From the IMG/VR virus record IMGVR_UViG_2910822364_000002, positions 16,849 through 80,848 of that record: a stretch of 64,000 nucleotides of DNA. One strand, 5' to 3'. How positions within the stretch are numbered: position 1 is the stretch's first letter; every line of letters begins with the position of its first letter. Below are positions 16,825 to 64,000 of the stretch, piece by piece. The notes under the pieces are model-generated. The model did not search any database. It had not been told where the DNA came from and worked only from the letters and a program-made list of their open reading frames with translations. Source of the stretch: a virus (taxonomy: Duplodnaviria; Caudoviricetes). The position numbers and the translations under genes were made by a program.

Positions 16825-16859
16825 GCCAGAGGTTCGATTTTATAAAGAGGACCTCTGGC
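16825..16859 (+). terminator. Stem-loop after the hydrolase gene
   Basis: GCCAGAGGT...ACCTCTGGC inverted repeat. Confidence 0.5.
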
Positions 16860-21383: not shown

Positions 21384-22409
21384 TTATTTCAACAAAAGAA
21401 TTGTCTCTCTTAATTGTTTTACTGTTTTATGATTATAAACTCTGTTTCCGATATCTTTAGATTTATGTCCCATCAGCATATCAATGCATTTTCTATTACC
21501 GCCTGCATTATCCAAAAATGTTTCAAAAGTATGCCTTGCCTCATGAGGCGTTTTCTTTTTCTTTGTTATATAGGCAATAACAACCTTCCATTCTTCATAA
21601 AAATCCCATTTTTTAAACTTGGAACCTTCATCATTTTCTAAAAAATATTCATTACTTTTCTCTAACCGTTTTTTTACAAACGGCATGATACGAGGATGAA
21701 TTGGAACAATTCTGTTTTTTCCAGAATCAGATTTACTTCCACCTTTAAAGTATTGTTCTTCTAGGTTTACTTGATCACATGTCATATCTAATAATTCCAT
21801 TAATCGGAATCCCGTATAAATATAGATTAAAACAATATCAACATTTTTTTGATCAGATATTTTCCATAGAGCTTCAACTTCTTTTTCGGTAAATGGTGCG
21901 CGTTTTGACTCTTCCTGCTTGGCACTTACAGACGTTAATTGTGAATACATTTTATCTATGATATCTAATTCAAACGCAAAACTGTCTAAATGTCCCCATA
22001 GAACTTTGATATGAGCTTGCGTGGCATAACTGCGTTCACAGTTATCTATAGTTTCTTGCATTTGATAAGCTTTTATTTGTCTGTATTTCATTCCGTAGAG
22101 TTTTTGACAATGTTTATAAGCTGATTTGAGTGAGCTTAAACGAGAGGTTCCAAGTTTGGGACCTTTTATTTCAAGCCATCTCGTATATAAATCTGCAAGC
22201 GTCACTCGGTTACGATCAATGTTCCACGGATTGTCGTTGTACTTGGCCAAAATGATGTTTGCTTCTTCACGAGTAGCAGCATAGTCCACTGGGACCTGTC
22301 TTCCGTGTCCGTCTTCATCATATGTAGTAACTTTTACAACGTATGGGCGTGATCGGTTGCCTTTCAATTTAGTTACACTTCCATATCCGTTTGGATTTCT
22401 TCTTGTCAT
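21384..22409 (-). CDS. Prophage tyrosine integrase
   Basis: RRNPNGYGSV arm-binding N-terminus, YTGFR, HEARH, MGH, VYNH catalytic residues. Confidence 0.95.
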   Translation of the reverse strand: MTRRNPNGYGSVTKLKGNRSRPYVVKVTTYDEDGHGRQVPVDYAATREEANIILAKYNDNPWNIDRNRVTLADLYTRWLEIKGPKLGTSRLSSLKSAYKHCQKLYGMKYRQIKAYQMQETIDNCERSYATQAHIKVLWGHLDSFAFELDIIDKMYSQLTSVSAKQEESKRAPFTEKEVEALWKISDQKNVDIVLIYIYTGFRLMELLDMTCDQVNLEEQYFKGGSKSDSGKNRIVPIHPRIMPFVKKRLEKSNEYFLENDEGSKFKKWDFYEEWKVVIAYITKKKKTPHEARHTFETFLDNAGGNRKCIDMLMGHKSKDIGNRVYNHKTVKQLRETILLLK

Positions 22410-48728: not shown

Positions 48729-51700
48729 ATGGCAGATGGTACAGTTACAATAGAAACCAAACTGGATAATTCTGGTGCAGAAAAAGGATTAAACGATCTT
48801 AAGAAAGAAGTTGAGTCTTCTTCTAAGAGTACAGCACAGGAGATAGATAAAGCTTCTGATCAGGCACAAAAGAGTGTAGAAGAAGTTGCTAAGTCAGCAG
48901 AGAAAACCGGAAAACAAGTAGAAAAGAGTGCAAAGGATTCAGCATCGAAAGCAGGACAGGCAGCCAAACAAGGAGCTGATTCAGCAGCAAAAGGAACAGA
49001 ATCCGCATCTACGAAGATGCAGCAGTCTCATAAAAAGGTAAAGGATACTGCAAAAGAAAGTGCAGATGGCGCAAAAAAGTCTTGGGAAGAATCTAATCAA
49101 AGTACAGTAGCAAGTACAGAGAGTGCAACATCAAAGATGGCCGGATTGATGAAAAAATCTGCAGCAGTAATTGGAGTTGCATCTGTGGCGGCCGCAAAAA
49201 AGACGATCGATGTAGGCAAGTCTTTTGAAGCAGGAATGAGCGAGGTCCAGGCGATCTCCGGAGCATCTGGAAAAGACCTGAAAAAGCTATCTGCAAAAGC
49301 AAAGCAGATGGGAGCTACAACGAAGTTCTCTGCTACAGAGTCAGCTACAGCACTAAAATATATGGCTATGGCAGGGTGGAAAACAAATCAGATGGTTTCT
49401 GGATTGTCCGGTGTCATGAACTTAGCTGCAGCATCTGGAGAAGACCTTGGAACAGTATCCGACATTGTAACGGACTCAATGACCGCTTTCGGATTGAAAG
49501 CAAAGGATTCTGGACATTTTGCAGATGTACTGGCTAAAGCATCGAGTAGTTCTAACACCAATGTTGCAATGATGGGAGAAACATTTAAGTATGTTGCCCC
49601 TCTGGCCGGATCTATGAAGTACAGTATCGAAGATACAGCTACAGCCGTTGGATTGATGGCAAATGCCGGAATCAAGGGATCACAGGCAGGTACAGAGTTA
49701 AGATCTATCCTGACACGACTTGTAAAACCGCCAAAAGATGCAGCGGCAGCATTGAGTGCTTTGGGTATCAGCACAACAAAAGCTGATGGATCCATGAAGC
49801 CAATGAGACAGACGATGGCGGAATTGAGAGAAAAGTTCTCTAGATTAACAGACAGCCAGAAATCCCAGTATGCTGCAGCTATTGCAGGACAGGAAGCAAT
49901 GTCTGGTCTGTTAGCAATCGTAAATGCATCTGATTCCGATTTCAATAAACTGCAAAAGGCAATTGATAATTCTTCCGGTGCAGCCAAGAAACAGGCAGAT
50001 GTCATGAACAATAATCTGCAGGGAGCATTGTATGATCTTGGATCGGCAGCAGAAGCGGTGGGGATTGGTATCTATGAAGATATTAAGACACCTTTAACAA
50101 AAGCCGTTGGTGTTGGGACAAAACAGTTAAGGATTTTATCTAACAAATTGAAAAAAGGTGGAATAAAAGAGATTGTTCCGAAGGAAGCTATAAATACGGT
50201 TGAAAATCTTGGAAAAGTGGCTATGGTAGCTGGCAAAGGTGGAGTAAAAGTATTGGCCACTTCTACAAAACTGCTTGGGGACAACATGGGTGTAGTTATT
50301 CCACTTGCAACATCATTCATGGGTGCCTGGGCCGGAGTTAAGGTTTTCAACACTGCATCTAAAGGAGTTACAGCATTAACTACAGCTTTTAGTGCCTTAA
50401 AAACAATGGAGCAGGCAAATGCAATCACCTTAGTGGCACAACAGGGTGGTTTGACCGCATTGCAGACAGTTGTTGGAATCTTTACAGGTAAGATTTCTCT
50501 TGCGACAGTAGCAACAGGAGCTTTTAATGCAGCATGTACAGCACTTGGCGGTCCAGTAGGTTTAGGAGTTGTTGCAGTAGGTGCTTTAGTAGCAGGAGTC
50601 GCAGCATACACACTGACACAGAAAAAAGCAGTTACAAAAGCAGATCGATACTATTCTTCGTGCACAAAACTCAAAAAGAAACAAGAAGAGATGGCAGCAT
50701 CGATCAAGAGCTTACATAAAGAAAATCAGAAAAATGTAGATTCTGCACGTGCAAATGGTGTTCAGGCAGATCAGTTGTATCAAAAATTGACAAAACTGAT
50801 GAATGTTGAGCATAAGAGCGCTGGGACAAAAGCACAGATTGTAAGTGTAGTTAAACAATTAAATGAATTATTACCAGGGCTGAATCTTGAGTATGACAAA
50901 GAAGCAGATAAGCTAAATAAGTCTACTTCTACGATCAAGAAAAACATCGCAGCATTGAAAGAACAGGCAATGGCCAAGGCTTATCAAAAAGGCATGGAAA
51001 GTGCAGCATCTAAAGTAGCCAAAGCCGATATTGAGAATGAAAAAGCTATCAAGAAAAAGACGGAAGCAACAAACAAATATAATGCCGCTGTTGAAAAAAT
51101 GAATCAGGTTACCGCAAAGGTAAATCAGGGAAAGATAACAACAAGCAGTGATGAATATAAGAAAGCTTCTAATGATCTGACAAAATACTATGATGCAATG
51201 ATGACAGCCAATAAGGCGGTTGAGCAAAGTGGTAAAAACTTAAATGCAGCACAAAAAGAACTGACTGCATACACAGACAAATATACAGCACAGGCAAATT
51301 ATACAGAGTATCTGAAATCTTTAGATGATCTGGCCAAACAGGCAAAGATTAAAGCGAGTGTTATTCCAAAATCTGTTGGAGAGGGAATCAAACAGGGTGT
51401 TTATGCAAATCCAACATCTGGAAAAGAATTAAAGAGCTTGATCAAATTAGATGATCTAGTTAATTCCGATCAGTTGGCCAAGATGCAAGAACAAGGTATG
51501 AAGATACCACAGTATCTGTCAAAAGGGATTTCTGATGGATCTATATCATTTAAGAGTGCTGCAAAACAGATGCAGAATGCGATCAATTGGACCGATCTGA
51601 TCCAAAAGGCAAAGGATGCAGGTGTTAAAGTTCCTGATAGCGTAGCGCAAGGAATTAGTTCCGGACAATATGCGGTCCCTACGTCTGTGCAGGCAGTAAA

Positions 51701-54167
51701 AAATCTTGTCACGTTCGAAGATCTGAAAGCTAAGGCACAGCAAGGTGGTATACAGGTACCGGACTATTTAGCAAATGCGATCACATCTGGTAGTGGAAAA
51801 CCGAAAGAAGCAGCGGCCGCATTAAGTCGTATGATTTCTTTCCAGGAAGCAATAACAAAAGCAGGAATTGATGGATCTAAGATTCCAACAGAACTTGCAA
51901 CGAAAGTTGCACAAGGAAAGACGCCGGTTCAAGATGCAATCAAAGAACTAACAAAGATAGACTTATCCGGAGATCAGAATGCATTTGGTCTTACAAAAGC
52001 TATTGATAGTACGGCACAAAAGACAAAAAGCCAGGCAACAAAGATAAAAAACAGTTTAAAAATCGGCAAGGTAGATAATTCAGCTGCAGCAAGCTCATTT
52101 GATGCTATTGCAACCAAAACAGGAAAAGCGGCTACTACAGTTAAGAAAAATAGTACAGCAATCAAAAAAGCAAGTAAGATTACTGCTACGAATAATTCAA
52201 GTGCCGGAGTTCAATCGTTTAATAGTTATTTATCTTCTTTTTCAAAGGGATCTGGTAAAGCAAAATCAGCCGCAGATAAAATCAGCAAAACAACCGCAAC
52301 AGGGCTTGCTTCTGGTTCAGGAAAAGCAAAAACAGCCGGCGGAAAGATGACATCGGAATTTTCTAAAGGAATTGCATCGAAGTCTGGAACAGCAAAATCT
52401 GCCGGTTCAAAAGTATCTAAAGCAGGTTCTTCCGGAGCAAGTGCGCAGAAATCTTCTTTTGTATCCGTTGGTGGTAATTTATCTCTTGGATTAGCATCTG
52501 GCATCAGATCAAACTCTGATGCTGTATCAGCAGCCGCAAGAGAAGCAGTAAGAGCTGCAGTTGCAGCCGCAAAAGCAGAAGGTAAGATCCATTCCCCATC
52601 CCGCGTCATGGAGTCTGACGTAGGAAAATGGATGCCGTTAGGAATGGCAGCAGGTATCAGAAAGCATATAAAAGATGTGGAAGATGCTTCTGGAGAGATG
52701 GCTAACGCATCGGTAGAAGCTACAGCAACAGCTTTAGGAATCCATTCTCCATCTCGTGTATATAAAGATGCGATTGGCAAGAATATTCCAAAAGGTGTGG
52801 CAAAGGGTGTTAGAGAAGGGCAGACAGAACTCAATGCAGAAATGAAGTTATCTGTAAATGAAGCATTATCTGCAGCTAAGAGTGCGTCGAAAAAAGGAAA
52901 TTATTCCGATATTGGGAACAACTTAGTATCTGGTATATCCGAAGCACTCAACACAGCCAAGTCAAGATCATCAGAAACTGTACAAGAGATTATTGATCAG
53001 CAAACAAGTAAAGTTTCTTCGAAGCACGATACAACAGAGAAAAATCTTCAAGATAAGATCAGTAAGACAAAAAATAAAAAGAAAAAAGCAAAACTAAAAA
53101 AACAGCTGAAAAAGTTAAAGAAGCAGAATGCTGCAGAAGAAAAGCAATTAAAAATTGCAGGAGAAAAAACGGCAGCAGCTTACAATGATGCTTTTGAGAA
53201 AGAAGCTGATCGATTAAACAAGATTGCACAGGAAAAGTTACAAGACTTATCTGATGAATATCAGGAAGCGTATAACAACATCAAGAGCAAGATGGACAGT
53301 TTAACTGATAAACAGCAATCTTGGGGAAATATCTATAACCTTGATCAGAATATCATGGACATTGAAAAGTATCAAAAGAACTTGAAGTTGCTAGAAAACA
53401 AGATTCCTGAGTCTATGATGGAAAAGATTCTCGGAATGGATATTGATGCAGGAAACGCTTATATGGCATGGTTCCAGCATATGTCAGAAACTGAACAGCA
53501 GGCTTACATTAATAAGTGGAATCAGCAGCAGAATATGTCCAAAACATTTTCTGAAAACTTCTTTGGAGATGATCTCGCAAAACTTCAGGCAAATTATGAA
53601 TCTGAAATGAAAACAGTAACGGATGATCTGCAGAAAGAGATGAAACAGGCAGGAGTTAATATTGCCAAGGGATTAACTGCAGGTATGGAAAGCGAAACCA
53701 GAAACCTCAGCAAATCCATGAAGAAAATCTGTCAGAATATTATTAAGACAGCCAAAAAGACACTTAAGATTCATTCCCCATCTCGAGAATTTGCAAAGAT
53801 TGGTTCTTATGATATTCAGGGAGCAATCAAAGGACATGAAAAAGAAGCGCCAAATCTGTATAAACAAATGGGAACGATTTCTCAGAACATGGCACAGAAA
53901 TTTGCGAAAGCGAAGTTGAATGTTCAAGATATTCAGTCAAGGATGCAGGATGCGATCAACCTGCAGATGCAGACGATCACAACAAGGATGCAGCCAGTTG
54001 TGCAGGCAGATTCATCTGATGGAGCGCCATCAGTAGTTTATACTGGACCAGAACGAATTGAAGTTCCAGTGATCGTAGATGGACGAGAAATTACAAGAAT
54101 GATTGCTCCGTATATGGATACAGAGCTGAATACGATTGCAACCAGAAAATCAAGAGGAGGTGTGTAA
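48729..54167 (+). CDS. Tail tape measure protein
   Basis: 1812 aa Ala/Lys-rich; TP901-type core (GATTKFSA.E.A.AL.YMAMAGW), IHSPSR motifs. Confidence 0.95.
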   Translation: MADGTVTIETKLDNSGAEKGLNDLKKEVESSSKSTAQEIDKASDQAQKSVEEVAKSAEKTGKQVEKSAKDSASKAGQAAKQGADSAAKGTESASTKMQQSHKKVKDTAKESADGAKKSWEESNQSTVASTESATSKMAGLMKKSAAVIGVASVAAAKKTIDVGKSFEAGMSEVQAISGASGKDLKKLSAKAKQMGATTKFSATESATALKYMAMAGWKTNQMVSGLSGVMNLAAASGEDLGTVSDIVTDSMTAFGLKAKDSGHFADVLAKASSSSNTNVAMMGETFKYVAPLAGSMKYSIEDTATAVGLMANAGIKGSQAGTELRSILTRLVKPPKDAAAALSALGISTTKADGSMKPMRQTMAELREKFSRLTDSQKSQYAAAIAGQEAMSGLLAIVNASDSDFNKLQKAIDNSSGAAKKQADVMNNNLQGALYDLGSAAEAVGIGIYEDIKTPLTKAVGVGTKQLRILSNKLKKGGIKEIVPKEAINTVENLGKVAMVAGKGGVKVLATSTKLLGDNMGVVIPLATSFMGAWAGVKVFNTASKGVTALTTAFSALKTMEQANAITLVAQQGGLTALQTVVGIFTGKISLATVATGAFNAACTALGGPVGLGVVAVGALVAGVAAYTLTQKKAVTKADRYYSSCTKLKKKQEEMAASIKSLHKENQKNVDSARANGVQADQLYQKLTKLMNVEHKSAGTKAQIVSVVKQLNELLPGLNLEYDKEADKLNKSTSTIKKNIAALKEQAMAKAYQKGMESAASKVAKADIENEKAIKKKTEATNKYNAAVEKMNQVTAKVNQGKITTSSDEYKKASNDLTKYYDAMMTANKAVEQSGKNLNAAQKELTAYTDKYTAQANYTEYLKSLDDLAKQAKIKASVIPKSVGEGIKQGVYANPTSGKELKSLIKLDDLVNSDQLAKMQEQGMKIPQYLSKGISDGSISFKSAAKQMQNAINWTDLIQKAKDAGVKVPDSVAQGISSGQYAVPTSVQAVKNLVTFEDLKAKAQQGGIQVPDYLANAITSGSGKPKEAAAALSRMISFQEAITKAGIDGSKIPTELATKVAQGKTPVQDAIKELTKIDLSGDQNAFGLTKAIDSTAQKTKSQATKIKNSLKIGKVDNSAAASSFDAIATKTGKAATTVKKNSTAIKKASKITATNNSSAGVQSFNSYLSSFSKGSGKAKSAADKISKTTATGLASGSGKAKTAGGKMTSEFSKGIASKSGTAKSAGSKVSKAGSSGASAQKSSFVSVGGNLSLGLASGIRSNSDAVSAAAREAVRAAVAAAKAEGKIHSPSRVMESDVGKWMPLGMAAGIRKHIKDVEDASGEMANASVEATATALGIHSPSRVYKDAIGKNIPKGVAKGVREGQTELNAEMKLSVNEALSAAKSASKKGNYSDIGNNLVSGISEALNTAKSRSSETVQEIIDQQTSKVSSKHDTTEKNLQDKISKTKNKKKKAKLKKQLKKLKKQNAAEEKQLKIAGEKTAAAYNDAFEKEADRLNKIAQEKLQDLSDEYQEAYNNIKSKMDSLTDKQQSWGNIYNLDQNIMDIEKYQKNLKLLENKIPESMMEKILGMDIDAGNAYMAWFQHMSETEQQAYINKWNQQQNMSKTFSENFFGDDLAKLQANYESEMKTVTDDLQKEMKQAGVNIAKGLTAGMESETRNLSKSMKKICQNIIKTAKKTLKIHSPSREFAKIGSYDIQGAIKGHEKEAPNLYKQMGTISQNMAQKFAKAKLNVQDIQSRMQDAINLQMQTITTRMQPVVQADSSDGAPSVVYTGPERIEVPVIVDGREITRMIAPYMDTELNTIATRKSRGGV

Positions 54168-54168
54168 A

Positions 54169-54882
54169 ATGGCAGGCGGAGCATTAGGAGTAATGATTGG
54201 AGAAAAACATACATTGAGAGATTGGAACCTTGGATGGACTGCGATCACTCTTGGTTTTCCAGAGCCAAAAACTTATGAACAGGATATTCCAGGGGCAGAC
54301 GGAACACTGGATATCACAGAAGCAATTACTGGTGGAGATGTGAAGTATAAAAACCGAAACATCTCTTTAGAGTTTGAAACTCCGGACGAAGATTTCTTTC
54401 AGTGGGGAATGTGTATTTCTGAAATTGCAAATTATCTTGTGGGTAAGAGGGTGAAGATCATATTCGATACAGATCCTAGTTTTTATTATATTGGAAGACT
54501 CACAATTGATGTTGAAAAAACTGACAGAGTAAATGGAAAACTTGTGATTTCAGGAGATGTCGATCCGTATAAGTATGAAAGATATTCATCCCTTGAAGAC
54601 TGGAAATGGGATACCTTTAATTTTGAAACAGATATTATAAGAGAATATAAGGATATTAAAGTCGATGGAGAGTATCAGTTATGTATTTCAGGAAGAAGAA
54701 AACGAGTCATTCCAGTGATTGAATGTAATACGGCAATGAAAGTCAGTTTCAATGATACGGAATATTCACTTCTCGCAGGTAGAAATAAAGTATTTAACAT
54801 CTGGTTGACGGAAGGAGATAATATTTTAACGTTCAAAGGAACTGGCGTTATTTCAATCGATTATCGAGGAGGCAGTTTGTAA
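54169..54882 (+). CDS. Distal tail protein (Dit)
   Basis: After TMP; IPGADG.LD.TE; WDTFNFE. Confidence 0.8.
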   Translation: MAGGALGVMIGEKHTLRDWNLGWTAITLGFPEPKTYEQDIPGADGTLDITEAITGGDVKYKNRNISLEFETPDEDFFQWGMCISEIANYLVGKRVKIIFDTDPSFYYIGRLTIDVEKTDRVNGKLVISGDVDPYKYERYSSLEDWKWDTFNFETDIIREYKDIKVDGEYQLCISGRRKRVIPVIECNTAMKVSFNDTEYSLLAGRNKVFNIWLTEGDNILTFKGTGVISIDYRGGSL

Positions 54883-56100
54883 ATGTATAGAATATTGTGT
54901 GATGGGAAAGTGCTGCATGATATTCGTGATCCGGATTATCAAGTGCTTTCACCGAAAATTTCATTGGAGTTAAACAAAACGGGGAATCTAGATTTTGGTA
55001 TGCTTTCAACACATCCTCATGTAAATGGCATAAACAAATTAAAATCTAAGATCGAAGTGTATGAGGATGATGAATTATTGTTTTCTGGAAGAAGTCTGAC
55101 AAATGAACAAGACTTCAAAAACACTGGCCAGATTTCCTGTGAAGGGGAGCTTGCTTTTTTGTTAGATTCAGTACAACGTGCACATGATTATGGTACCGAA
55201 ACAACAGAAATAGGTCAGGCAGATACAAATGTCAAAATATTCAAAAGGCTAATTGAAGAACATAACGCGCAGGTAGAAGAAGAAAAGCGTTTTACAATTG
55301 GAGTAATTGATATAGATAGCGTAACCATTACAAAATTGTCTACGAACTATGAAAAGACATGGGATTTTCTTAGTTCTAATTTTTTAGGTAAATATGACGG
55401 CTATCTTCGAGTAAGGCATGAAAACGGAATCCGATATCTTGACTATGTAAAACAATATGGGAAAGTAAGTAATCAAGTGATCCGCTTTGGAGAGAATCTG
55501 CTTGATCTAAAGAAGTATTCGAAGGCAGAAGATATTAAAACAGCGATCATCCCGCTGGGAGCAGTTGTTGATAATAAAAATGTCGATATTAAAGCGGCAA
55601 ATGGCCATGATGGGACAGATTATGTATATAACCAAGAAGCGGTAAATTTATATGGATGGATTTATGATAAGGTTGATTTTTCGGATATTTATGATCCAGA
55701 CACATTATTAGAAGAAGCCAAGAAATATCTGCAAACGTGTATCAATCTGGCAATTACAATTGAACTTACTGCAGTGGATCTTCATATGATTGATGTAGAT
55801 ATAAATTCTATCAGGTTGGGAGATCTTGTTCCTTGTATTTCGACACAACACGGAATCATGAGTACGTTTGGAGATGTGAGTACGTATTATCTTGTAAGTA
55901 AATATGAACTAGATCTTGAGAATCCAACAAATAATAAAATAACTCTTGGAAGAACAATCAGTACATTGACAGACAAACAGGTAAACGATTCTGTAAATTT
56001 AAAGGCTCAGATAAGTGAAGTTAGAACAGAAATGTACAACCTTCCAGGATTAAGCCTGGAACCAATCACAAATGAAGTTTTAGAGGGAATCTTAAATTAA
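54883..56100 (+). CDS. Tail-associated protein (Tal/prophage endopeptidase-like)
   Basis: After Dit; FG.NLLD...TAIIPLG...YGWI. Confidence 0.8.
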   Translation: MYRILCDGKVLHDIRDPDYQVLSPKISLELNKTGNLDFGMLSTHPHVNGINKLKSKIEVYEDDELLFSGRSLTNEQDFKNTGQISCEGELAFLLDSVQRAHDYGTETTEIGQADTNVKIFKRLIEEHNAQVEEEKRFTIGVIDIDSVTITKLSTNYEKTWDFLSSNFLGKYDGYLRVRHENGIRYLDYVKQYGKVSNQVIRFGENLLDLKKYSKAEDIKTAIIPLGAVVDNKNVDIKAANGHDGTDYVYNQEAVNLYGWIYDKVDFSDIYDPDTLLEEAKKYLQTCINLAITIELTAVDLHMIDVDINSIRLGDLVPCISTQHGIMSTFGDVSTYYLVSKYELDLENPTNNKITLGRTISTLTDKQVNDSVNLKAQISEVRTEMYNLPGLSLEPITNEVLEGILN

Positions 56101-56111
56101 AGGAGAAAACA

Positions 56112-56882
56112 ATGGCAGATAATAATTATCTTGATCAAAACGGAGTCTTATATCTCTGGCAGAAGATAGTAGCAAAGATAACGAATATGATCGCAAATAA
56201 AGTAGACAAAGTAGATGGCAAAGGATTATCTACAAATGATTATACAACAGCAGAAAAAACAAAGCTTGCAGGAATCGCAGAAGGAGCGAATAAATATACG
56301 CACCCTACGACAAGCGGAAACAAACATATTCCATCTGGTGGTAGTGCTGGACAGATCTTAAGATGGGATTCGGATGGTACTGCAGTATGGGGTGCAGATA
56401 ATAATAATACCACGTATAGCGATATGAAAGGAGCAACCACATCCGCAGCAGGTACACACGGATTGGCACCAGCACCTGCAGCAGGTGCAGCTAATAGGTA
56501 TTTAAGATCAGACGGAACATGGAGTGTTCCGCCTGATAACAATACGACATACAATGATGCGACGCAATCTTCACATGGGCTTATGACTGCGGCAGATAAA
56601 AAGAAGATCGATGAGTTACCAACAAATGCAACGCTATCAAGTACATATGCAAAGAAATCTGAAATCACAGGTGTTTATAAATACAAAGGATCCGTGGCAA
56701 CAGAAGATAAATTACCAACATCTGGACAAACAACAGGAGATGTTTACGATATTGCAGCAGCATCATCTTATGGAGCTGCAGGGATGAATGTTGCATGGAA
56801 TGGAAAAGCGTGGGATGCTCTAGGGGAAAAATTTCAGATTGCTGCAATTACAAATACATGGATGGACGCAAATCTTACATAA
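56112..56882 (+). CDS. Fibre-like minor structural protein
   Basis: KVDKVDGKGLSTNDYT..EK.KL.GI; YTHP; repeated TTY.(D/N)..AT motifs. Confidence 0.7.
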   Translation: MADNNYLDQNGVLYLWQKIVAKITNMIANKVDKVDGKGLSTNDYTTAEKTKLAGIAEGANKYTHPTTSGNKHIPSGGSAGQILRWDSDGTAVWGADNNNTTYSDMKGATTSAAGTHGLAPAPAAGAANRYLRSDGTWSVPPDNNTTYNDATQSSHGLMTAADKKKIDELPTNATLSSTYAKKSEITGVYKYKGSVATEDKLPTSGQTTGDVYDIAAASSYGAAGMNVAWNGKAWDALGEKFQIAAITNTWMDANLT

Positions 56883-56888
56883 AGGACG

Positions 56889-57272
56889 GTGTTTAATGTG
56901 GCAAGTTATTTAGATGAAACAGGGCTTTTAAAGCTGTGGAATAAAATAAAAAACTATGTGAGTAATCACACAGGAAACAAAAACAATCCTCACGGAGTCA
57001 CAAAGTCTCAAGTAGGATTAGGAAGTGTTGAAAATAAATCCAGTGCAACAATCAGAGGAGAAATAACGGCATCAAACGTAAACACAGCGTTAGGTTATAC
57101 GGCTGCAAAACAGACAGACGCAAATAAGGCGATTACAGGAATTTCTGCGAGCGGAACAACTCTTGTATTGACACAATTAGATGGAACAACAAAATACGTA
57201 ACGGCAGAGCTTGTAAAGGGACAGATGATCTATTGCTGCAGTAACAGTGAGGATCAGATTTATTGCTGTTAA
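56889..57272 (+). CDS. Fibre-like minor structural protein
   Basis: H.GNKNNPHGVTKSQVGLG.VENKS repeat typical of phage fibres. Confidence 0.7.
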   Translation: MFNVASYLDETGLLKLWNKIKNYVSNHTGNKNNPHGVTKSQVGLGSVENKSSATIRGEITASNVNTALGYTAAKQTDANKAITGISASGTTLVLTQLDGTTKYVTAELVKGQMIYCCSNSEDQIYCC

Positions 57273-57290
57273 ATGAAAGGAGAAATAATA

Positions 57291-57695
57291 ATGGCATACA
57301 CAAAGAAAACATGGGTAAAAGGAAATACGCCTTTATCCGCAGAAAATTTTAATCATATGGAGCAGGGAATTGCAGATGCACACACAGATATTGCGCAGCT
57401 AAATTCTGAAAGAGCATTTTTATCAAAAGTATTTTCTGGAACAAGCAACAAAATGATTTACTGGCAAAGATGTCAGTCTGAAATTGCAAAAGCATTAGGC
57501 ATGCAAATATCAGACATAAATAACGAAAAGTTATATATAGCAGCTTGCAACGGTGATTGGAATGCGTATCAAGGTCTGGTAACAGGTGCTGCTTTACAAT
57601 GGGATAATACAAATTTAAATATAAACATAGGATTATCCAGTGATACAAACGGTGCTGTTAGGATTAATTTTATGATTTATCGTAAATTAAATTAA
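57291..57695 (+). CDS. Expressed tail-fibre/receptor-binding gene: 35-aa constant part + cassette A
   Basis: AGGAGA RBS; N-terminus MAYTKKTWVKGNTPLSAENFNHMEQGI; site 1 at codons 36-40 (QLNSE); cassette A 57396-57695 (99 aa). Confidence 0.85.
   Translation: MAYTKKTWVKGNTPLSAENFNHMEQGIADAHTDIAQLNSERAFLSKVFSGTSNKMIYWQRCQSEIAKALGMQISDINNEKLYIAACNGDWNAYQGLVTGAALQWDNTNLNINIGLSSDTNGAVRINFMIYRKLN
57396..57409 (+). repeat. Shufflon site S1 CAGCTAAATTCTGA
   Basis: Identical 14-mer at four places in 2.5 kb; in frame as QLNS. Confidence 0.9.
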
Positions 57696-58030
57696 TCTAT
57701 ATCATATACTATGGAGGTATATACACATGTTGAGTACACTGTAGGAAAATATATTGTTATATCACCATTTGTGTCAATTTTAACAGCACCAATATTATTA
57801 AAATTAACATCATCATCGGTATAGCAAGCCGATCCGCATTTTATTTTAGGTCTAAAACCTTCTGGAACAAAAAAACAAGTTGTAATCCCAACACTAGGAG
57901 AATTGCAATGGAAATATCCATTTATATATACTTTTCCATTATGTTTATAACTGTTTCCGGTGAATGCATATTTTGAATCTATGCTAGTAATTGTAAATTC
58001 TATTCTGTTATTTAAGTCAGAATTTAGCTG
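57692..58030 (-). other. Silent cassette B (112 aa, QLNSDLNNRIEF...VYDID)
   Basis: Open frame from S2 to a TAA overlapping cassette A stop (shared TTAA 57692-57695); GKVYINGY...VPEGFRP...IDTNGDI resembles fibre/RBP head domains; no own RBS/start. Confidence 0.85.
58017..58030 (-). repeat. Shufflon site S2
   Basis: TCAGAATTTAGCTG = reverse complement of S1. Confidence 0.9.
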
Positions 58031-58100
58031 CGGAAGTCTACGAATCCTCCGCAGCGGAAAAGAGTATAATGCACACATAACACACAAAGGAGAAAGTATT

Positions 58101-59096
58101 ATGCGTGACAGAATTATAAGTAACGTGCTAATCAAAATGGGCAATAGAATCAAGAAAAAAGAGCTAGATTATCTTGAAAATGTGTTGGTAGAAGAGTTCC
58201 AAGATGTACAGATTAAGAAAGAATCGACGGAATTGACGGAATACAATGACAGTTTAAGGAAGCTGAAAGATACGTTCCTTGCGACGCTGATTGTAGAAAA
58301 TAAATCCAACAGAACGATTGAACAGTATAATTTACATCTAACGCAGTTTGTAGATTATTTCACTGGAAAAGAAGCAAAAGACATAGATGCAACCGATATT
58401 AGGGGATTTCTATATGCGTATAAGCAAAGCAGAGGCATATCAAATTTATCATTAAACAATAAGCGATCAGCGATATCCTCGTTTTTTAGTTGGCTGGCTG
58501 ATGAGGAGTACATCGACAAAGATCCAACTCGAAAAATTAAGAAGATCAAAGTAACAAAGAAAAAGAAGAAGGCGTTTACAGTTGATGAAATGGAACGTAT
58601 GCGTATAGCATGTACGGATATTCGTGATCGGGCGTTGATAGAGATGTTAGCATCCACAGGTTGTCGTGTCTCAGAACTAAGCAGTATAAAGCTAAACGAT
58701 ATAGATTTTATTCGAAAGAAAGTGCGGATCACTGGTAAAGGAGATAAAGAGCGAACGGTGTTTATATCAGATCAGGCAATGATTTATCTGAATAGATATT
58801 TAGAAGCCAGACAAGATAATAACATTTCACTTTTTGTTTCTAAGAGGCATCCATATGATCAATTAAGAAAAGACGGAATCGAGCGAATTGTAAGAGATTT
58901 AGGAAAATTATGTAATGTATATGCACATCCGCATAAATTCCGACGGACGTTATGTACGCAATTGATTAAGCGAGGCATGCCGCTTCAGGATGTTGCGATC
59001 TTGTTAGGTCATGCAGACATTAATATGACTGCCGGTACATACTATGATGCTTCAGACGATATGATTGAATATGAATATATTCGTTATGCAGCTTAA
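58101..59096 (+). CDS. Tyrosine recombinase (XerD/Rci-like), putative shufflon invertase
   Basis: AAGGAGA RBS; SAM-like N-domain; TGCRVSEL, GKGDKER, HPHKFRR, LGHA, TYY catalytic set; 331 aa. Confidence 0.93.
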   Translation: MRDRIISNVLIKMGNRIKKKELDYLENVLVEEFQDVQIKKESTELTEYNDSLRKLKDTFLATLIVENKSNRTIEQYNLHLTQFVDYFTGKEAKDIDATDIRGFLYAYKQSRGISNLSLNNKRSAISSFFSWLADEEYIDKDPTRKIKKIKVTKKKKKAFTVDEMERMRIACTDIRDRALIEMLASTGCRVSELSSIKLNDIDFIRKKVRITGKGDKERTVFISDQAMIYLNRYLEARQDNNISLFVSKRHPYDQLRKDGIERIVRDLGKLCNVYAHPHKFRRTLCTQLIKRGMPLQDVAILLGHADINMTAGTYYDASDDMIEYEYIRYAA

Positions 59097-59235
59097 AGAA
59101 TAATAATCAATCTAATATAAACTATTAAATCTGCTTAAAAGGGAAGGAGATTTTATTTTTATGCAAAAAATTAAATTTAGGAGCAGATCTCCGTGCATTT
59201 ATTTCGAAAAAGACAAAAAATAAACAGCAACAGCA

Positions 59236-59249
59236 CAGCTAAATTCTGA
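59236..59249 (+). repeat. Shufflon site S3
   Basis: CAGCTAAATTCTGA; shares 23 bp (GCAACAGCA + core) with S4 in inverted orientation. Confidence 0.9.
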
Positions 59250-59562
59250 TAAGGCTTGGAAAAGAATTTTTGATGGAAAAATATCCGAATCTTTTATCAT
59301 TCCGAGTAAATATAGAGAGATAGTAATCCAGATAACAATTGGATATACGAATTCTACGGATATTACGCTTCCTGAAATATACATTAATGATTTGAACACA
59401 TGGTGGAATAAAATTACATCTTATCGATATAATGATGCTTACAACGCTTGTATTTTAATGAATTATAACAGTGGAAATAAACAACTTAGAATGAACGAAA
59501 CATGGTTTGTTTGTAATCCGTCAAGTGATAATATATCCTATATCGTCTATGGACGTCAGTAA
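59236..59562 (+). other. Silent cassette C (108 aa, QLNSDKAWKRIFDGK...YIVYGRQ)
   Basis: Hand-translated stop-free frame from S3 to TAA 59560-59562; in-frame TAA at 59221 upstream, so no start of its own; absent from the ORF track. Confidence 0.85.
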
Positions 59563-59569
59563 ACATTTT

Positions 59570-59845
59570 TTAATTCCACAAGAAGTTTTCTTTGATCCAT
59601 ACAAGATCACAGCCAATTTTTTGGTTTTGTGGATAACTATTATTTGTCCATAATACATAACAATTCTCGTTGTTAACCTCCTGAGATATTGCTTCAACAC
59701 GTATGTAACCAGTGTCATATACATGCAATATCGCAGAACTCAAGCGATAACCTTGTTTACGATCAACATAAAAATAGTTGTTTCCAGTACCGTTCAATTC
59801 GGCATATTGAGTTACAAATGCATTTTTTAAGTCAGAATTTAGCTG
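59570..59845 (-). other. Silent cassette D (91 aa, QLNSDLKNAFVTQY...KENFLWN)
   Basis: Open frame from S4, tail-to-tail with cassette C (7-nt gap). Confidence 0.85.
59832..59845 (-). repeat. Shufflon site S4
   Basis: TCAGAATTTAGCTG; shares CTTAAA downstream flank with S2. Confidence 0.9.
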
Positions 59846-59868
59846 TGCTGTTGCGGAAAGGAAAAAAT

Positions 59869-60144
59869 ATGATTGATATAACAAAAGTTTTAAACGATAT
59901 ATTGAAAGCTGTTCTGGGAAAGGATGTACGGCAGGCAATTCATGACGGTATTAAAAGAAGCAATGAGATTGCAAACGATTGTGATAAAAGACAGAGTGAT
60001 CTCGAGAATCAATATGAGCAATTAGTTAAAAACTTTAGCTCTTCATCTCCATCAGATGTAGAAATTGTTGATGCGAGAACAGGACCAGATGGAACTGTAT
60101 ATGGAACTCTCAGAAAACGATTAGAAGATCCAAGATGTTCATAA
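59869..60144 (+). CDS. Short tail-protein-like ORF (91 aa)
   Basis: I..AVLGKDVRQAIHDGI and EIVDAR...DG.VY.TLRKRL motifs, normally N-termini of longer tail proteins. Confidence 0.7.
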   Translation: MIDITKVLNDILKAVLGKDVRQAIHDGIKRSNEIANDCDKRQSDLENQYEQLVKNFSSSSPSDVEIVDARTGPDGTVYGTLRKRLEDPRCS

Positions 60145-60226
60145 AGGAGCTGAATATGGAAATCAGAGCAAGACCCACAGCGGTCTTATTTTTGTGCAAC
60201 AATTGTAATCCAGAAAGGAGCAGATA

Positions 60227-60754
60227 ATGAAAAAAGGGATTATCACAACACTGGTTGTAACAATCTGCATGATGTTAACAGCAACATATGCATTCGCAGC
60301 ATCATCAAAAACAGAGAAGAAGGAGGTTAAAAAAGAAGTTACAACAACAGAAAAGCAGAAAGAAACAACTACAGCAGAAAAGCCTAAAACAGAAACCAAA
60401 GAATCAGAAGAACCTAATATAGAAGAAACAGAAATTTCAACGGAAGAAGAAAGTGATATCGAAAATGCAGAAGAGGTTTCGGACGATCAGGAAGAATCAG
60501 ATGATTCAGAAGAAGAGATTGATGATGAAGAAATGGATCATTGTAATCACGAATGGGTTCAAACTGGTTATGCTGCTGATCCAGATTTTCAAACAGGTTA
60601 TGCGATCGAGCAGGAGTGTAAAAAGTGTCATCTATGTAAAGGTATTGAAATTTCCCAAGAAGAATTTGAAGAAGCCACGAAAGAAGACCAAGAGTCTTAT
60701 GCTGATGAAGGCTGTGAATATGAGGATAGTGAAGATGCAGAGGTAGTTGAATAA
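60227..60754 (+). CDS. Secreted acidic hypothetical protein
   Basis: Signal peptide ending AFA; K/T- then D/E-rich linker; CNHEW...CKKC motif. Confidence 0.7.
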   Translation: MKKGIITTLVVTICMMLTATYAFAASSKTEKKEVKKEVTTTEKQKETTTAEKPKTETKESEEPNIEETEISTEEESDIENAEEVSDDQEESDDSEEEIDDEEMDHCNHEWVQTGYAADPDFQTGYAIEQECKKCHLCKGIEISQEEFEEATKEDQESYADEGCEYEDSEDAEVVE

Positions 60755-60773
60755 AAGAAAGGAAAGTGAGGGC

Positions 60774-61235
60774 ATGAAGAAAATGACAAACAATGTAATT
60801 AATACATACAATGTAGTGACCGGGTCAATTGTTGCAGTATTGAGTTATATCTTAGGAGAACACTGGATTTTATTTGTTGCTTTTCTTGCGTTAAACATTG
60901 CAGATTGGTTAACAGGGTGGATGAAAGCAAGTATGGCAGGCAAAGAAAATTCTGGAGCAGGTTGGAAAGGTGTTTTAAAAAAATTGGGCTATTGGATTAT
61001 GATCATGGTTGCATTTGGAGCATCTGCGGTATTTGTAGAAATCGGAAAGGTAATTGGAGTAGATCTTGGAGTTACGACATTGCTTGGATGGTTTGTATTG
61101 GCATCGTTACTGATCAATGAAATTAGATCTATTGTAGAGAATTTTGTAGAAGCAGGATTCAATGTACCAGCAGTCCTGGTAAAAGGATTAGAAGTAGCAG
61201 ACAAAGTAGTAAACAAAGATCAGGAGGAAGAATAA
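60774..61235 (+). CDS. Holin (Phage_holin_4/TcdE-like)
   Basis: ADWLTGWMKA...S..GWKGVLKK; NEIRSIVEN....G..VP..L.K.L. Confidence 0.92.
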   Translation: MKKMTNNVINTYNVVTGSIVAVLSYILGEHWILFVAFLALNIADWLTGWMKASMAGKENSGAGWKGVLKKLGYWIMIMVAFGASAVFVEIGKVIGVDLGVTTLLGWFVLASLLINEIRSIVENFVEAGFNVPAVLVKGLEVADKVVNKDQEEE

Positions 61236-61780
61236 TGGTATATAATATTCATGGTGGTCATAATCCAAGTGGCAAGATCGCGTGTGGAGCAAGCGACTTA
61301 TTAGACGAGAGCAGAGAAGACAGAAAAATCTGTAAAGAAGTCGTAAGGTTATTAAAGAAAAAAGGACATAAGGCATATAATTGTACAGTCAGCAACGGAA
61401 CTAGTCAGACGGACGTTCTCAGAAAGATCTGTACTAAGTGCAACAAAAGACAAGCAGCATTAGATGTTTCGATTCATCTTAATTCTGGTCGAAACGATCA
61501 CAAAGGAGACAAGAAAATTGCAGGTACAGAAATCTGGTGCACTCAGAGTGTAGGGATTAAGAAAACTGTTGGAAACAGAATCTTAGCAAACATGAAAAAG
61601 CTAGGATTTACAAACAGAGGAATTAAAACAACAGGAAATCTGTATTATCTTAATCATACGATCAATAAAGCAATCCTAATCGAGGTATGTTTCGTTGATG
61701 ATCGAGATGATTACAATCTTTACAAAAAACTTGGATACAAGAAGATTGCAAAAGCGATCGCAGACGGAATCGCGGGATAA
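61235..61780 (+). CDS. Endolysin, N-acetylmuramoyl-L-alanine amidase (Amidase_3), catalytic domain only
   Basis: HGGH, E, SIHLNS, ILIEVCFVD zinc ligands. Confidence 0.92.
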   Translation: MVYNIHGGHNPSGKIACGASDLLDESREDRKICKEVVRLLKKKGHKAYNCTVSNGTSQTDVLRKICTKCNKRQAALDVSIHLNSGRNDHKGDKKIAGTEIWCTQSVGIKKTVGNRILANMKKLGFTNRGIKTTGNLYYLNHTINKAILIEVCFVDDRDDYNLYKKLGYKKIAKAIADGIAG

Positions 61781-61786
61781 TGATTT

Positions 61787-61814
61787 GACCAGGGAGAAAT
61801 CCCTGGTCTTTTTT
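61787..61814 (+). terminator. Rho-independent terminator after lysin
   Basis: GACCAGGGA-GAAA-TCCCTGGTC then T-run. Confidence 0.88.
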
Positions 61815-61907
61815 ATTGCAAAAATAAACCAAAAAAGTTTAAAGAAACATTTGACAATAAGCCAAAAAAAAGTTTATTGTAAAGACAGTAAAAATATAGA
61901 ATTATTC

Positions 61908-61925
61908 TGTTACTAATTTGTTACT
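61908..61925 (+). repeat. Integrase arm-type site (right)
   Basis: TGTTACTAATTTGTTACT, same orientation as 21349-21366. Confidence 0.75.
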
Positions 61926-61984
61926 AAATACAGTGATTTAGAGATAGTTTACATATATTAAAATATTCAACAAACCGCTTAAAT

Positions 61985-64000
61985 GTGATGTTTTTGATAT
62001 TTATTATTTATTTAAATTTATATGGATATAAAACTGCAACATATTTTGATGAAAAATTGTTTAATATAGGCGCACAACTGGCAGATAATCATAGCAATCT
62101 ATATGATTATTGTAAGAGCACAAATCAAAGTTCTTGTTATCAGTCAATGACTGGAAGAAAAGCCACATTTCTGGAATATTTTTACCCTAATCCATTGGAA
62201 TTTGCGGAAAATGCTAGAAATTACGAGTGCCCAAAAGGAAATGCAATAAGCTTTATGTATTATCCAACAGGAGAAGAAAATGATGATTATTGGATTATGG
62301 AGGGGTTTGTAAATAAAGAATTATTGGCAGATTGGAAGGCTGTTGCATATACAGAAAGAGAAAAAGAGTTATTGGAAAATTCTAGAAAATATTATACAAA
62401 CTCAGTAAACACAGTTAATTCTATGAAATCATATTATGAGATTAAACCTTCTTACGATTCAATTAAGAATATAGAAGGTGGAAAGTTAAGTAAAGAAGTT
62501 GCAAAAGGAGCAGTTGATTATTTAAATGCAATTCGTGTGGGAGCTGGACTAAATCCATTGGAATATTCAGAACAATTGTCTATGGATGCACAGTGCAAAT
62601 CTACGTACACGGTATATTTGGCAAAAAATAATATAAAAAATTCATCACCTCATAATCCACCAAAGGTAGAGGGATTAAGCGATGAATATTATTCAAAATG
62701 TCAAAGTGGCAATGGAGAAAATTTATACTCATGTGGAATAATAAGTACGAGTATCATAGACAGTATTAGTAGTGCATTAGATGATAGTCAAGGGACAGGA
62801 CAATATTATAATAGAGGTCATAGATATAATCTGTTAAATCCTGAATGGAAATATATTGGAGTAGGAAATACGTTGCAACAAGCATGTCATAAATTGTCAG
62901 GAACGCAGAGTTCTAATGTAGATGTTGTTGCATGGCCACCAAAAGGAATTACTATTTCAGAAAGTGGATTTTCGCCATCAGGAATGTGGACATGTCAGTT
63001 TTATAATAAGTTAAAACCGACAGCTGATACTACAATAACGATTGAATGTCTCAATAGCAATAAGAAATGGAAGATTGATCCGAATAATCTTTTAGAAAAT
63101 CAAAATTATGAAAGAAGTGGGGATCTTATTTCCTATAGCGATGATTCTATTGTTTTTAAAATAGGAGGAGTTTATCAAATAACATATGATCATCTTACAG
63201 ATGCAAATGGGAATGAAACAAGTTATTCTTATAGAACAGTGTATAAAAAAGCTTATATTGGATCAGAAGAGGAGAAAGTACCACAATCTATAAAATTAGA
63301 TAAAACATCAGAAAAAGTTTTGCTTGGTACAACGAGTAAGTTGATTGCCAAAGTAAGCCCAGATAATATAAAGAATAAAAGAATTTATTTTGCAAGTAAT
63401 AACAAAGAAGTGGCTACTGTAAATGAATGTGGTGAGATTACAGCCCATTCGTTAGGAACAGCTGATATAACAGCTACAAGTGAAAATGGAAATATAACAG
63501 CTACATGCAAAATAATAGTAGTAAAAACTTTAGATCAGACAGATGATCAGCCAGAAAAGGAACCAACAAAGGAACCAGAAAAGGAACCAACTGGAGCAAT
63601 AACAAATGGAAATGTTAATAATAGTAATAACAAGTCTGATTTATCACAAGGACATAAAACAAATAACAGCAAAAAAGAAAATATAACCATTAGTAAAGCA
63701 AAAATTAAAAGTGCGAAAAAGAAAAAATCCTCAAAGTCCTTAACAATAATATTATCAAAAGCAGTACCTAAGGTAACTGGTTATCAAATAAAAATATATT
63801 CATCCAAAAAGAAAGCTAAGAAGAATAAGGGTGCTATTTGGACAAAGGTTGTACAGACAAATTCCAAGAAAATAGTTATTAAAAATAAAAAATTAAAAAA
63901 CAAAAAAACACTTTATATTCAGATACGTGCTTATAAGAGAATCAATAGAAAGAATAAATATAGTACGTGGTCAGAGATTAAGAAAGTAATTGTTAATTAG
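61985..64000 (+). CDS. CAP (SCP)-domain surface protein with Ig-like group 2 domain; probably 5'-truncated by the prophage
   Basis: YLNAIR...GLNPL, ENL, GHRYNLLNP.WKYIGVG CAP motifs; SIKLDKT...SNNKEVATV..G.ITA...G.A.ITAT Big_2; first 11 codons lie in the phage arm. Confidence 0.8.
   Translation: MMFLIFIIYLNLYGYKTATYFDEKLFNIGAQLADNHSNLYDYCKSTNQSSCYQSMTGRKATFLEYFYPNPLEFAENARNYECPKGNAISFMYYPTGEENDDYWIMEGFVNKELLADWKAVAYTEREKELLENSRKYYTNSVNTVNSMKSYYEIKPSYDSIKNIEGGKLSKEVAKGAVDYLNAIRVGAGLNPLEYSEQLSMDAQCKSTYTVYLAKNNIKNSSPHNPPKVEGLSDEYYSKCQSGNGENLYSCGIISTSIIDSISSALDDSQGTGQYYNRGHRYNLLNPEWKYIGVGNTLQQACHKLSGTQSSNVDVVAWPPKGITISESGFSPSGMWTCQFYNKLKPTADTTITIECLNSNKKWKIDPNNLLENQNYERSGDLISYSDDSIVFKIGGVYQITYDHLTDANGNETSYSYRTVYKKAYIGSEEEKVPQSIKLDKTSEKVLLGTTSKLIAKVSPDNIKNKRIYFASNNKEVATVNECGEITAHSLGTADITATSENGNITATCKIIVVKTLDQTDDQPEKEPTKEPEKEPTGAITNGNVNNSNNKSDLSQGHKTNNSKKENITISKAKIKSAKKKKSSKSLTIILSKAVPKVTGYQIKIYSSKKKAKKNKGAIWTKVVQTNSKKIVIKNKKLKNKKTLYIQIRAYKRINRKNKYSTWSEIKKVIVN
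62018..62030 (+). repeat. attR core TTATATGGATATA
   Basis: Identical to 21287-21299; follows lysin terminator and arm repeat. Confidence 0.85.

Follow-up and report, generated by a model that had tools for sequence, protein, structure and literature searches.

What is a phage tail gene good for when its start codon is followed by only one of four alternative ends, while the other three lie nearby without starts of their own and a recombinase gene sits in their midst? This question is raised by positions 57291 to 59845 of a 64,000-nucleotide stretch of DNA (positions 16,849 to 80,848 of the IMG/VR virus record IMGVR_UViG_2910822364_000002, Caudoviricetes; hereafter the window). A first-pass annotation had proposed a tail-fibre shufflon, i.e. 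one constant N-terminus, four swappable receptor-binding tips (cassettes A to D) and a dedicated tyrosine recombinase. Based on our computational analysis, the locus is very probably an active multiple-inversion switch (shufflon) in a temperate siphovirus, by which a small TP901-1-like receptor-binding protein (RBP) receives alternative head domains.

The layout of the locus is defined by the 14-mer CAGCTAAATTCTGA which, as the first-pass annotation had stated, is present in exactly four exact copies in the window. The orientations of these sites are +, -, + and -. S1 (57396-57409, plus strand) encodes the residues QLNS, and S2 (58017-58030, minus), S3 (59236-59249, plus) and S4 (59832-59845, minus) are the head sites of cassettes B, C and D, respectively. 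Searching the window with up to two mismatches yielded zero additional sites, and shuffled sequences searched with the same tolerance gave a mean of 0.82 matches, four being reached in 1 of 100 shuffles. The whole 80.8-kb provirus record contains the same four copies only and zero copies of a reversed control pattern. Past the core, S3 and S4 extend into a perfect 23-nt inverted repeat and S1 and S2 into a 19-nt inverted repeat (95%). Three invertible segments are bounded by the four sites: the A/B pair (607 nt), the recombinase gene (1205 nt; 58031-59235, plus strand, with the gene at 58101-59096 inside) and the C/D pair (582 nt). Shufflons as a class have at least three sites in both orientations which bound several segments, and this is what is found here. 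Owing to the alternating orientation of the sites, the moves are limited to four, namely inversion of segment 1, segment 2, segment 3 or all three together.

Every site opens a stop-free frame starting with QLNS, and translation reproduced the lengths given by the first-pass annotation: 99 amino acids for cassette A (57396-57695, plus strand), 112 for B (57692-58030, minus), 108 for C (59236-59562, plus) and 91 for D (59570-59845, minus). The coordinates also bear out the tail-to-tail arrangement of A/B and C/D with the recombinase between the pairs. S1 alone is preceded by a ribosome-binding site (RBS; AAAGGAG), an ATG at 57291 and 35 codons. These encode the constant N-terminal region N1 (MAYTKKTWVKG...DIA; 57291-57395, plus strand) whose residues 1-35 match phrog_2012 'minor tail protein'. 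N1 with its RBS and start is the expression slot, and the sequence around the sites confirms that only cassette A is joined to it in the window, forming a 134-amino-acid protein (57291-57695). Cassettes B, C and D are silent in the window. Starts of their own, which would have spoken against the proposal, were not seen upstream of these three cassettes: the cassette C frame has a stop codon 15 nt upstream, the B and D frames run upstream only as the antisense of adjacent genes, and reading the sequence directly showed no Shine-Dalgarno sequence before the TTG codons of B and D. A single expressed 5' part, together with 3' cassettes that lack starts and are joined to it by inversion, is a second hallmark of shufflons present at the locus.

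Past QLNS, the cassettes are unrelated to each other as had been claimed, with BLASTP among A to D giving no significant similarity; A and B share a C-terminal motif, N-x-N-(x)-I-G...DTNG..I.F. Pfam and NCBIfam returned nothing over threshold for any cassette or for the 91-amino-acid gene at the right flank. An exhaustive HMMER search with cassette A retrieved 12 proteins and no informative remote homologues, an Atlas search retrieved viral clusters only, and relatives of cassette B reach down to 62% identity. Among public proteins, N1 is found joined to A, B, C, D and other cassettes. The exact 134-amino-acid N1+A protein is present on 106 contigs and an N1+C protein (P0039) on 40 contigs, the isolate GCA_013302595.1 among them, and N1+B fusions are represented by P0072 and P0197, the latter heading a cluster of 253 sequences. 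Taking related loci and public data together, each of the four cassettes of the window was seen in the expressed position, and the first-pass description of four swappable tips therefore stands. A fourth type of constant N-terminus (ca. 70 amino acids, ending in ...SDISVLNSE) is joined to cassette A in protein P0025, where the junction reads VLNS instead of QLNS.

The gene between the cassette pairs encodes an intact Xer-like tyrosine recombinase of 331 amino acids (58101-59096, plus strand) with a Phage_integrase domain (PF00589, 4.9e-37) and SAM-like N-terminal domains (SAM_1/SAM_4). Its best NCBIfam matches are the XerA, XerC and XerD models. In the PDB, XerA and XerD structures match best, the closest being Pyrococcus XerA (4a8e, 5.4e-31), with the conserved catalytic motifs aligned. 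In agreement with the first-pass annotation, it is distinct from the prophage integrase (21384-22409, minus strand, 341 amino acids), which has an arm-type N-terminus. Serine recombinases of the resolvase family (PF00239) are absent from the 80.8-kb record, the same search being positive in 12 of 14 control genomes. Identical copies of the recombinase protein occur on 91 contigs, and 1,333 members make up its 90%-identity cluster. Together with the cassettes, the recombinase is found behind three to four different constant regions and follows tail modules of the siphovirus as well as the myovirus type. Scanning species-representative genome contigs with the recombinase gave relatives of at most 35% identity and hence no host assignment, and tblastn against 50,697 phage records found no Bifidobacterium phage at E<=1e-20. 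A third tyrosine recombinase (414-amino-acid open frame) lies outside the window at the very start of the provirus record (G000:C1:40-543, minus strand), so the record may include a second element or host DNA. Further, related Xer-like genes annotated as 'integrase' (33-36% identity) are located between the tail genes and the holin in Terrisporobacter phage TPELB_ph1 (L072, 17645-18640), which has an additional separate integrase, and in Clostridium phage phiCp-D (L074, 21639-22616). Both phages were considered as shufflon candidates and dropped, with no convincing inverted repeats around these genes.

Evidence that the segments move comes from related loci. A recombinase search of IMG/VR yielded 33 loci (86-100% identity) and an exact-sequence look-up 10 further ones, two of them NCBI isolate assemblies; in the related loci every site was located, every cassette was translated and the cassettes were clustered. 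Five pieces of the window, namely a left flank of 4.3 kb, the three segments and a right flank of 4,055 nt, recur at 100.000% identity in the assemblies L068 (GCA_013302605.1) and L065 (GCA_013302595.1), amounting to ca. 10.8 kb with 0 mismatches. L068 has the arrangement of the window. In L065, the expression slot is occupied by C/D, so that N1 continues into C, and A/B lies in the distal position. As only four moves are possible, no fewer than four inversions must separate L065 from L068, and the two do not differ by a single point mutation. A third isomer was obtained from sequencing-run data, for which Logan contigs of four runs (X1, X2, X4 and X7) were compared with positions 56000-61000. 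In case of run X1, contigs with 0 mismatches are joined at 57409/59831, 58017/59250, 58010/59826 and 59235/57396. At each joint an overlap of 14-20 nt fits either side, which places all four within the core, and together they give the order N1|D> <C REC> A> <B. A third hallmark of shufflons, rearrangement at the sites within DNA that is otherwise the same, was thus found in L065, L068 and the window as well as in X1. In the same run, the body of cassette A (57410-57700) occurs only on a contig of depth 4.6, with its partner B and the remainder at ca. 26 and a contig break at 57700, which may reflect a second strain with a different partner for B.

Other relatives broaden this picture. L004 reads N1|D> <C REC>, followed by an S3|B junction, and stops 20 codons into B; we take it to be part of a fourth arrangement, N1|D> <C REC> B> <A. 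L027 shows N1|B> <A, the whole S1-S4 block is inverted between L067 and L069, and in L069, L010 and L020 the recombinase runs opposite to both flanks. Products of the S1xS2, S1xS4, S2xS3 and S3xS4 kinds were all seen in near-identical prophages, as expected for the multiple-inversion mechanism of the first-pass annotation, and the cassette order, whose fixity in all relatives would have spoken against its proposal, varies (L065, L004, L027, L067/L069). Across the 44 related loci, 24 cassette families are distributed over the slots, families A, B, D, E and F each occurring in all four, and the strictly alternating site orientation is kept in dozens of loci. Contig ends fell within 120 nt of a site in 3 of 34 cases with no pile-up at the sites, and assembly breakage was therefore not used as evidence. 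Two loci (L034 and L035) are decayed: a recombinase cut off after residue 280 is joined straight to the right flank, and both S3 and S4 have been lost along with the distal cassette pair. Here, the choice of RBP looks locked, and the deletion is not at a site.

The point of crossover could be narrowed down by comparing 152 classified sites (41 S1 and 111 S2-S4). The core variant CAGT is restricted to S1 (6 of 41) and CAAC to S2-S4 (40 of 111), each being spread over many cassette families. This combination of slot-bound variants and mixed families indicates that core positions 1-4 remain with the slot and that strand exchange takes place in positions 5-14 (TAAATTCTGA). The sequences left of the core are slot-specific as well (ATT[G/A]CG at S1, CTTCCG or ACTCCG at S2, CAACAGCA-like at S3 and S4), and those to the right are cassette-specific and not conserved. 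The site can be described as a conserved half plus spacer joined to a non-conserved half. The same asymmetry between a conserved and a non-conserved half has been described for the sfx sites of R64, and it may bias recombination towards inversion over deletion between direct repeats.

These observations bear on whether the isomers could instead be a fossil mosaic, with rare homologous recombination between related phages at the QLNS stretch, a recombinase that serves dimer resolution or integration, and no present switching. Mosaicism is real in these phages, as one relative (L066) combines a myovirus tail with the same recombinase and lysis module; TPELB_ph1 and phiCp-D show that related Xer-like genes occur without convincing inverted repeats nearby, and the evidence for heterogeneity comes from contigs, not raw reads. 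We nevertheless consider this explanation highly improbable. Isomers two to four or more inversions apart with 0 mismatches over ca. 10.8 kb argue against it, as do the strict alternation of sites in dozens of loci and the location of every junction in a core whose 14 bp are insufficient for homologous recombination to work efficiently. Further, the variants at core positions 3-4 stay with their slot and point to one precise crossover point.

In the mechanism we propose for the active switch, the armless Xer-like recombinase adjoining the sites would recombine any plus site with any minus site, strand exchange occurring inside TAAATTCTGA. Inversion of segment 1, 2 or 3 alone or of all three together would generate 16 isomers, four per expressed tip. 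The left half of each site stays fixed in its slot, the right half belongs to the cassette, and the cassette next to S1 alone would gain the RBS, the start codon, the 35-amino-acid stem and a helical neck. Since only the S1-adjacent cassette gains a start, each genome would express one RBP variant and a population would hold several host-recognition specificities.

If switching is ongoing, different isomers may coexist in one sample, and contigs from three runs suggest this. Run X2 contains both N1|B and right-flank|A junctions, which are incompatible within one isomer if the recombinase and C/D lie between them. In isolate run X7, an N1|B junction is found on a contig with a mean depth of 200, and a 43-nt junction contig links the S3 left flank to B at a depth of 46.7 (23% of the flanks). 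In isolate run X4, the recombinase-side flank is joined to both members of a cassette pair. The same signals might result from two or more co-resident prophages or strains which carry the same cassettes in different fixed arrangements. We regard this as possible but rather doubtful. Siphovirus- and myovirus-type prophages do share the recombinase and cassettes, and in X4 the recombinase has ca. 2x and cassette D ca. 4x the depth of the flanks, so that a second prophage copy is likely in this run. However, the minor junction in X7 stands at 23% of flank depth and not at 100%, and co-residence leaves the identical-sequence isomers in different isolates unexplained.

Several points weigh against an active switch with the properties described above. 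The signals of both X7 and X4 could originate from a second prophage copy, and switching within clonal cultures at a useful rate is something we infer from contigs rather than raw reads. The recombinase is anti-oriented to the constant region in ca. 4-5 of the 44 assembled loci, whereas a fraction nearer half is expected under free shuffling, and some inversions may thus be rarer or selected against. Promoter- and terminator-like sites at the locus are no more frequent than in shuffled sequences. Catalysis by the Xer-like recombinase is assumed from its linkage to the sites. Finally, the RBP-head fold could be modeled for a fusion with cassette B as outlined below, and for A, C and D it is presumed from their position and the motif shared by A and B.

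To what kind of protein do the cassettes belong? A model of N1+B built from 14 sequences reached a pLDDT of 77.7 (85-92 in the head) and consists of short N-terminal strands, a long helix (residues 17-42) which contains the QLNS junction, and a beta-sandwich. The fold was compared by two independent structure searches, both of which placed siphophage RBPs closest. The best match was gp15 of Listeria phage PSA (Z 10.3 over 129 residues), followed by lactococcal TP901-1 ORF49 (Z 9.8, rmsd 2.5 over 99 residues) and the heads of phages p2 (Z 9.6) and bIL170 (Z 9.3), and Foldseek matched phage RBPs with an E value of 2e-4. The product is accordingly modeled as a stem-neck-head RBP of 126-147 amino acids, similar to that of TP901-1, in which the switch would swap the head. 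The tail-fibre identity assigned by the first-pass annotation therefore holds for a receptor-binding tip of the tail and does not hold for a long fibre, the N1+B fold being that of a small TP901-1-like RBP. A single-sequence AlphaFold model of N1+A was poor (pLDDT 42.6).

A role in host recognition is suggested by the modeled fold together with the position of the gene, and the different tips presumably bind different receptors. It is also conceivable that the switch is active and the variable protein does not determine host range, acting instead as a decoration or accessory adhesin (for mucus or glycans) or allowing escape from antibodies or host surface variation. The very small size of the protein (126-147 amino acids) fits such a role, as do the two larger fibre-like genes that precede it and the tail-like 91-amino-acid gene that follows. 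We consider it improbable all the same, because the N1+B model matches bona fide RBPs from TP901-1, p2 and PSA, proteins of comparable size and the only ones by which those phages recognize their hosts, and because myovirus relatives carry the same cassettes at the end of a 401-amino-acid fibre encoded after Baseplate_J and Mu Gp48.

The locus is embedded in a siphovirus tail module with the gene order tape measure (48729-54167), Dit (Sipho_tail, 54136-54882), Tal (Prophage_tail, 54883-56100), two fibre-like genes, switch, holin and amidase. The fibre- or shaft-like genes (56112-56882, plus strand, 256 amino acids; 56889-57272, plus strand, 127 amino acids) both have PHROG tail and tail-fibre matches, and a motif found in this region (56112-57272), GLGxVENKSSATIRGE, recurs in the long constant region N3 of related loci. 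The 127-amino-acid protein ends in a Cys-rich C-terminal tail (IYCCSNSEDQIYCC), and isolate run X7 contains 811 additional letters at 56951/56971 inside its gene. On the other side, the 91-amino-acid gene (59869-60144, plus strand) is a conserved, non-inverting gene with weak PHROG tail-protein matches which forms the fixed right border of the shufflon and adjoins S4 in almost all relatives. Directly after the amidase lies a large protein (61985-64000 of the window, plus strand) with a weak CAP-domain match, a Big_2 domain and a Lys-rich tail. Its position is kept in nearly all related loci, in siphovirus and myovirus contexts alike, and its gene may represent a moron or cargo located where the prophage ends. 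The 90%-identity cluster of the amidase contains a protein of Anaerostipes sp.; on the basis of this one named member the host is probably Anaerostipes, and the assignment to Lachnospiraceae made by the first-pass annotation is plausible.

The cassettes are not confined to the siphovirus context. In L066 (1-4600) and L070, a myovirus-type tail module consisting of Sheath_initiator, Baseplate_J, Mu Gp48 and the 401-amino-acid fibre is joined at the shufflon to a recombinase, an A/B segment and a lysis module. Compared with window positions 58013-63900, the latter three are 99.5-99.8% identical in L066 from S2 rightwards, and the boundary of the mosaic in L066 and L070 lies at or near S2. Tentatively, the recombinase and the sites, together with a large common stock of RBP-head cassettes (24 or more families in the 44 loci), could be viewed as a portable host-range module which serves unrelated siphovirus and myovirus tails in the same host species, with the sites also trading cassettes in trans between co-resident prophages. 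We put this forward as a speculative extension of the switch and would not be surprised if it proved incorrect.

How does the locus relate to known inversion systems? The implied novelty of a tyrosine-recombinase RBP shufflon did not survive comparison with the literature, as the Rin shufflon was published in 2018 for Bifidobacterium breve/longum prophages (Mavrich et al. 2018, PMC6109161) and in 2022 for Eggerthella lenta prophages (PMC8778435). Rin is an armless XerD-like tyrosine invertase separate from the integrase, it acts at an asymmetric 11-bp rix site (TTCCCTAACCC), and the RBP it switches has a constant N-terminus of 168 amino acids and variable C-termini of 95-100 amino acids with weak similarity to the TP901-1 RBP; variants were observed between prophages and in virion reads, and the first phage-encoded tyrosine DNA invertase was already claimed in that work (PMC6109161). 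The present locus shares with Rin a phage-encoded, armless XerD-like recombinase next to a separate arm-type integrase, and a constant RBP N-terminus followed by alternative TP901-1-type C-termini of ca. 90-120 amino acids, the fold being supported here by the model for B. Short asymmetric sites, several highly dissimilar cassettes and isomers between related prophages are likewise common to both.

The two systems differ in several respects. The host phylum is Firmicutes (probably Anaerostipes) and not Actinobacteria, and the 14-bp core CAGCTAAATTCTGA differs from the 11-bp rix sequence and cannot be classed as rix. Two tail-to-tail cassette pairs enclose the recombinase as an invertible segment of its own, whereas rin flanks its array opposite the constant gene. 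Further, the constant part can be as short as 35 amino acids compared with 168, and a single pool of cassettes is used by three to four constant regions and by siphovirus as well as myovirus tails.

Older relatives show partial resemblance only. The R64/IncI shufflon (Rci, pilV) likewise uses a tyrosine recombinase for multiple inversion and joins a constant N-terminus to alternative adhesin C-termini, but it targets the tip adhesin of a conjugative pilus and not a phage RBP within a tail module, and its site sequence differs. The recombinase described here scores as XerA/C/D-like without an Rci-family assignment, which separates the locus from the Rci/pilV class. Mu Gin, P1 Cin, e14 Pin and p15B Min also switch the C-termini of phage tail fibres by inversion, and Min is multi-segmented as well. 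Unlike the present system, these are serine recombinases with a Fis-dependent enhancer which act on long myovirus fibres in Proteobacteria, and the locus is not a member of their class. In hsdS shufflons such as the pneumococcal ivr locus, a tyrosine recombinase is likewise surrounded by incomplete genes in inverted orientation, and a single expressed 5' part receives the shuffled half-genes. There, however, the target is a DNA-specificity subunit and recombination is not phage-borne. Both hsdS and tail fibres have been named as inversion targets (Milman et al. 2023, PMC9881135). Our literature search, whose coverage excludes most subscription journals and does not amount to proof of absence, did not reveal a published shufflon in phages infecting Firmicutes or Anaerostipes.

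In conclusion, the locus is a further example of the Rin-type design with which it has every functional feature in common, and it introduces no new principle. What may be new is the host phylum, the recombinase as an invertible segment of its own and the cassette pool common to siphovirus and myovirus prophages. Lachnospiraceae such as Anaerostipes are abundant butyrate producers of the gut, and the determinants of host range in their phages are poorly known. The locus represents a naturally switchable set of receptor-binding heads which is very common in public data, and its function is directly testable because cultured isolates are already in different switch states. For sequence-based work, gene callers miss or mis-call the silent cassettes and assemblies give one arbitrary isomer, so that host predictions based on RBP sequences can be wrong for such phages. 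With the Rin-type RBP shufflon extended from Actinobacteria to Firmicutes, our findings suggest that switching receptor-binding heads by inversion is a general strategy of gut temperate phages.

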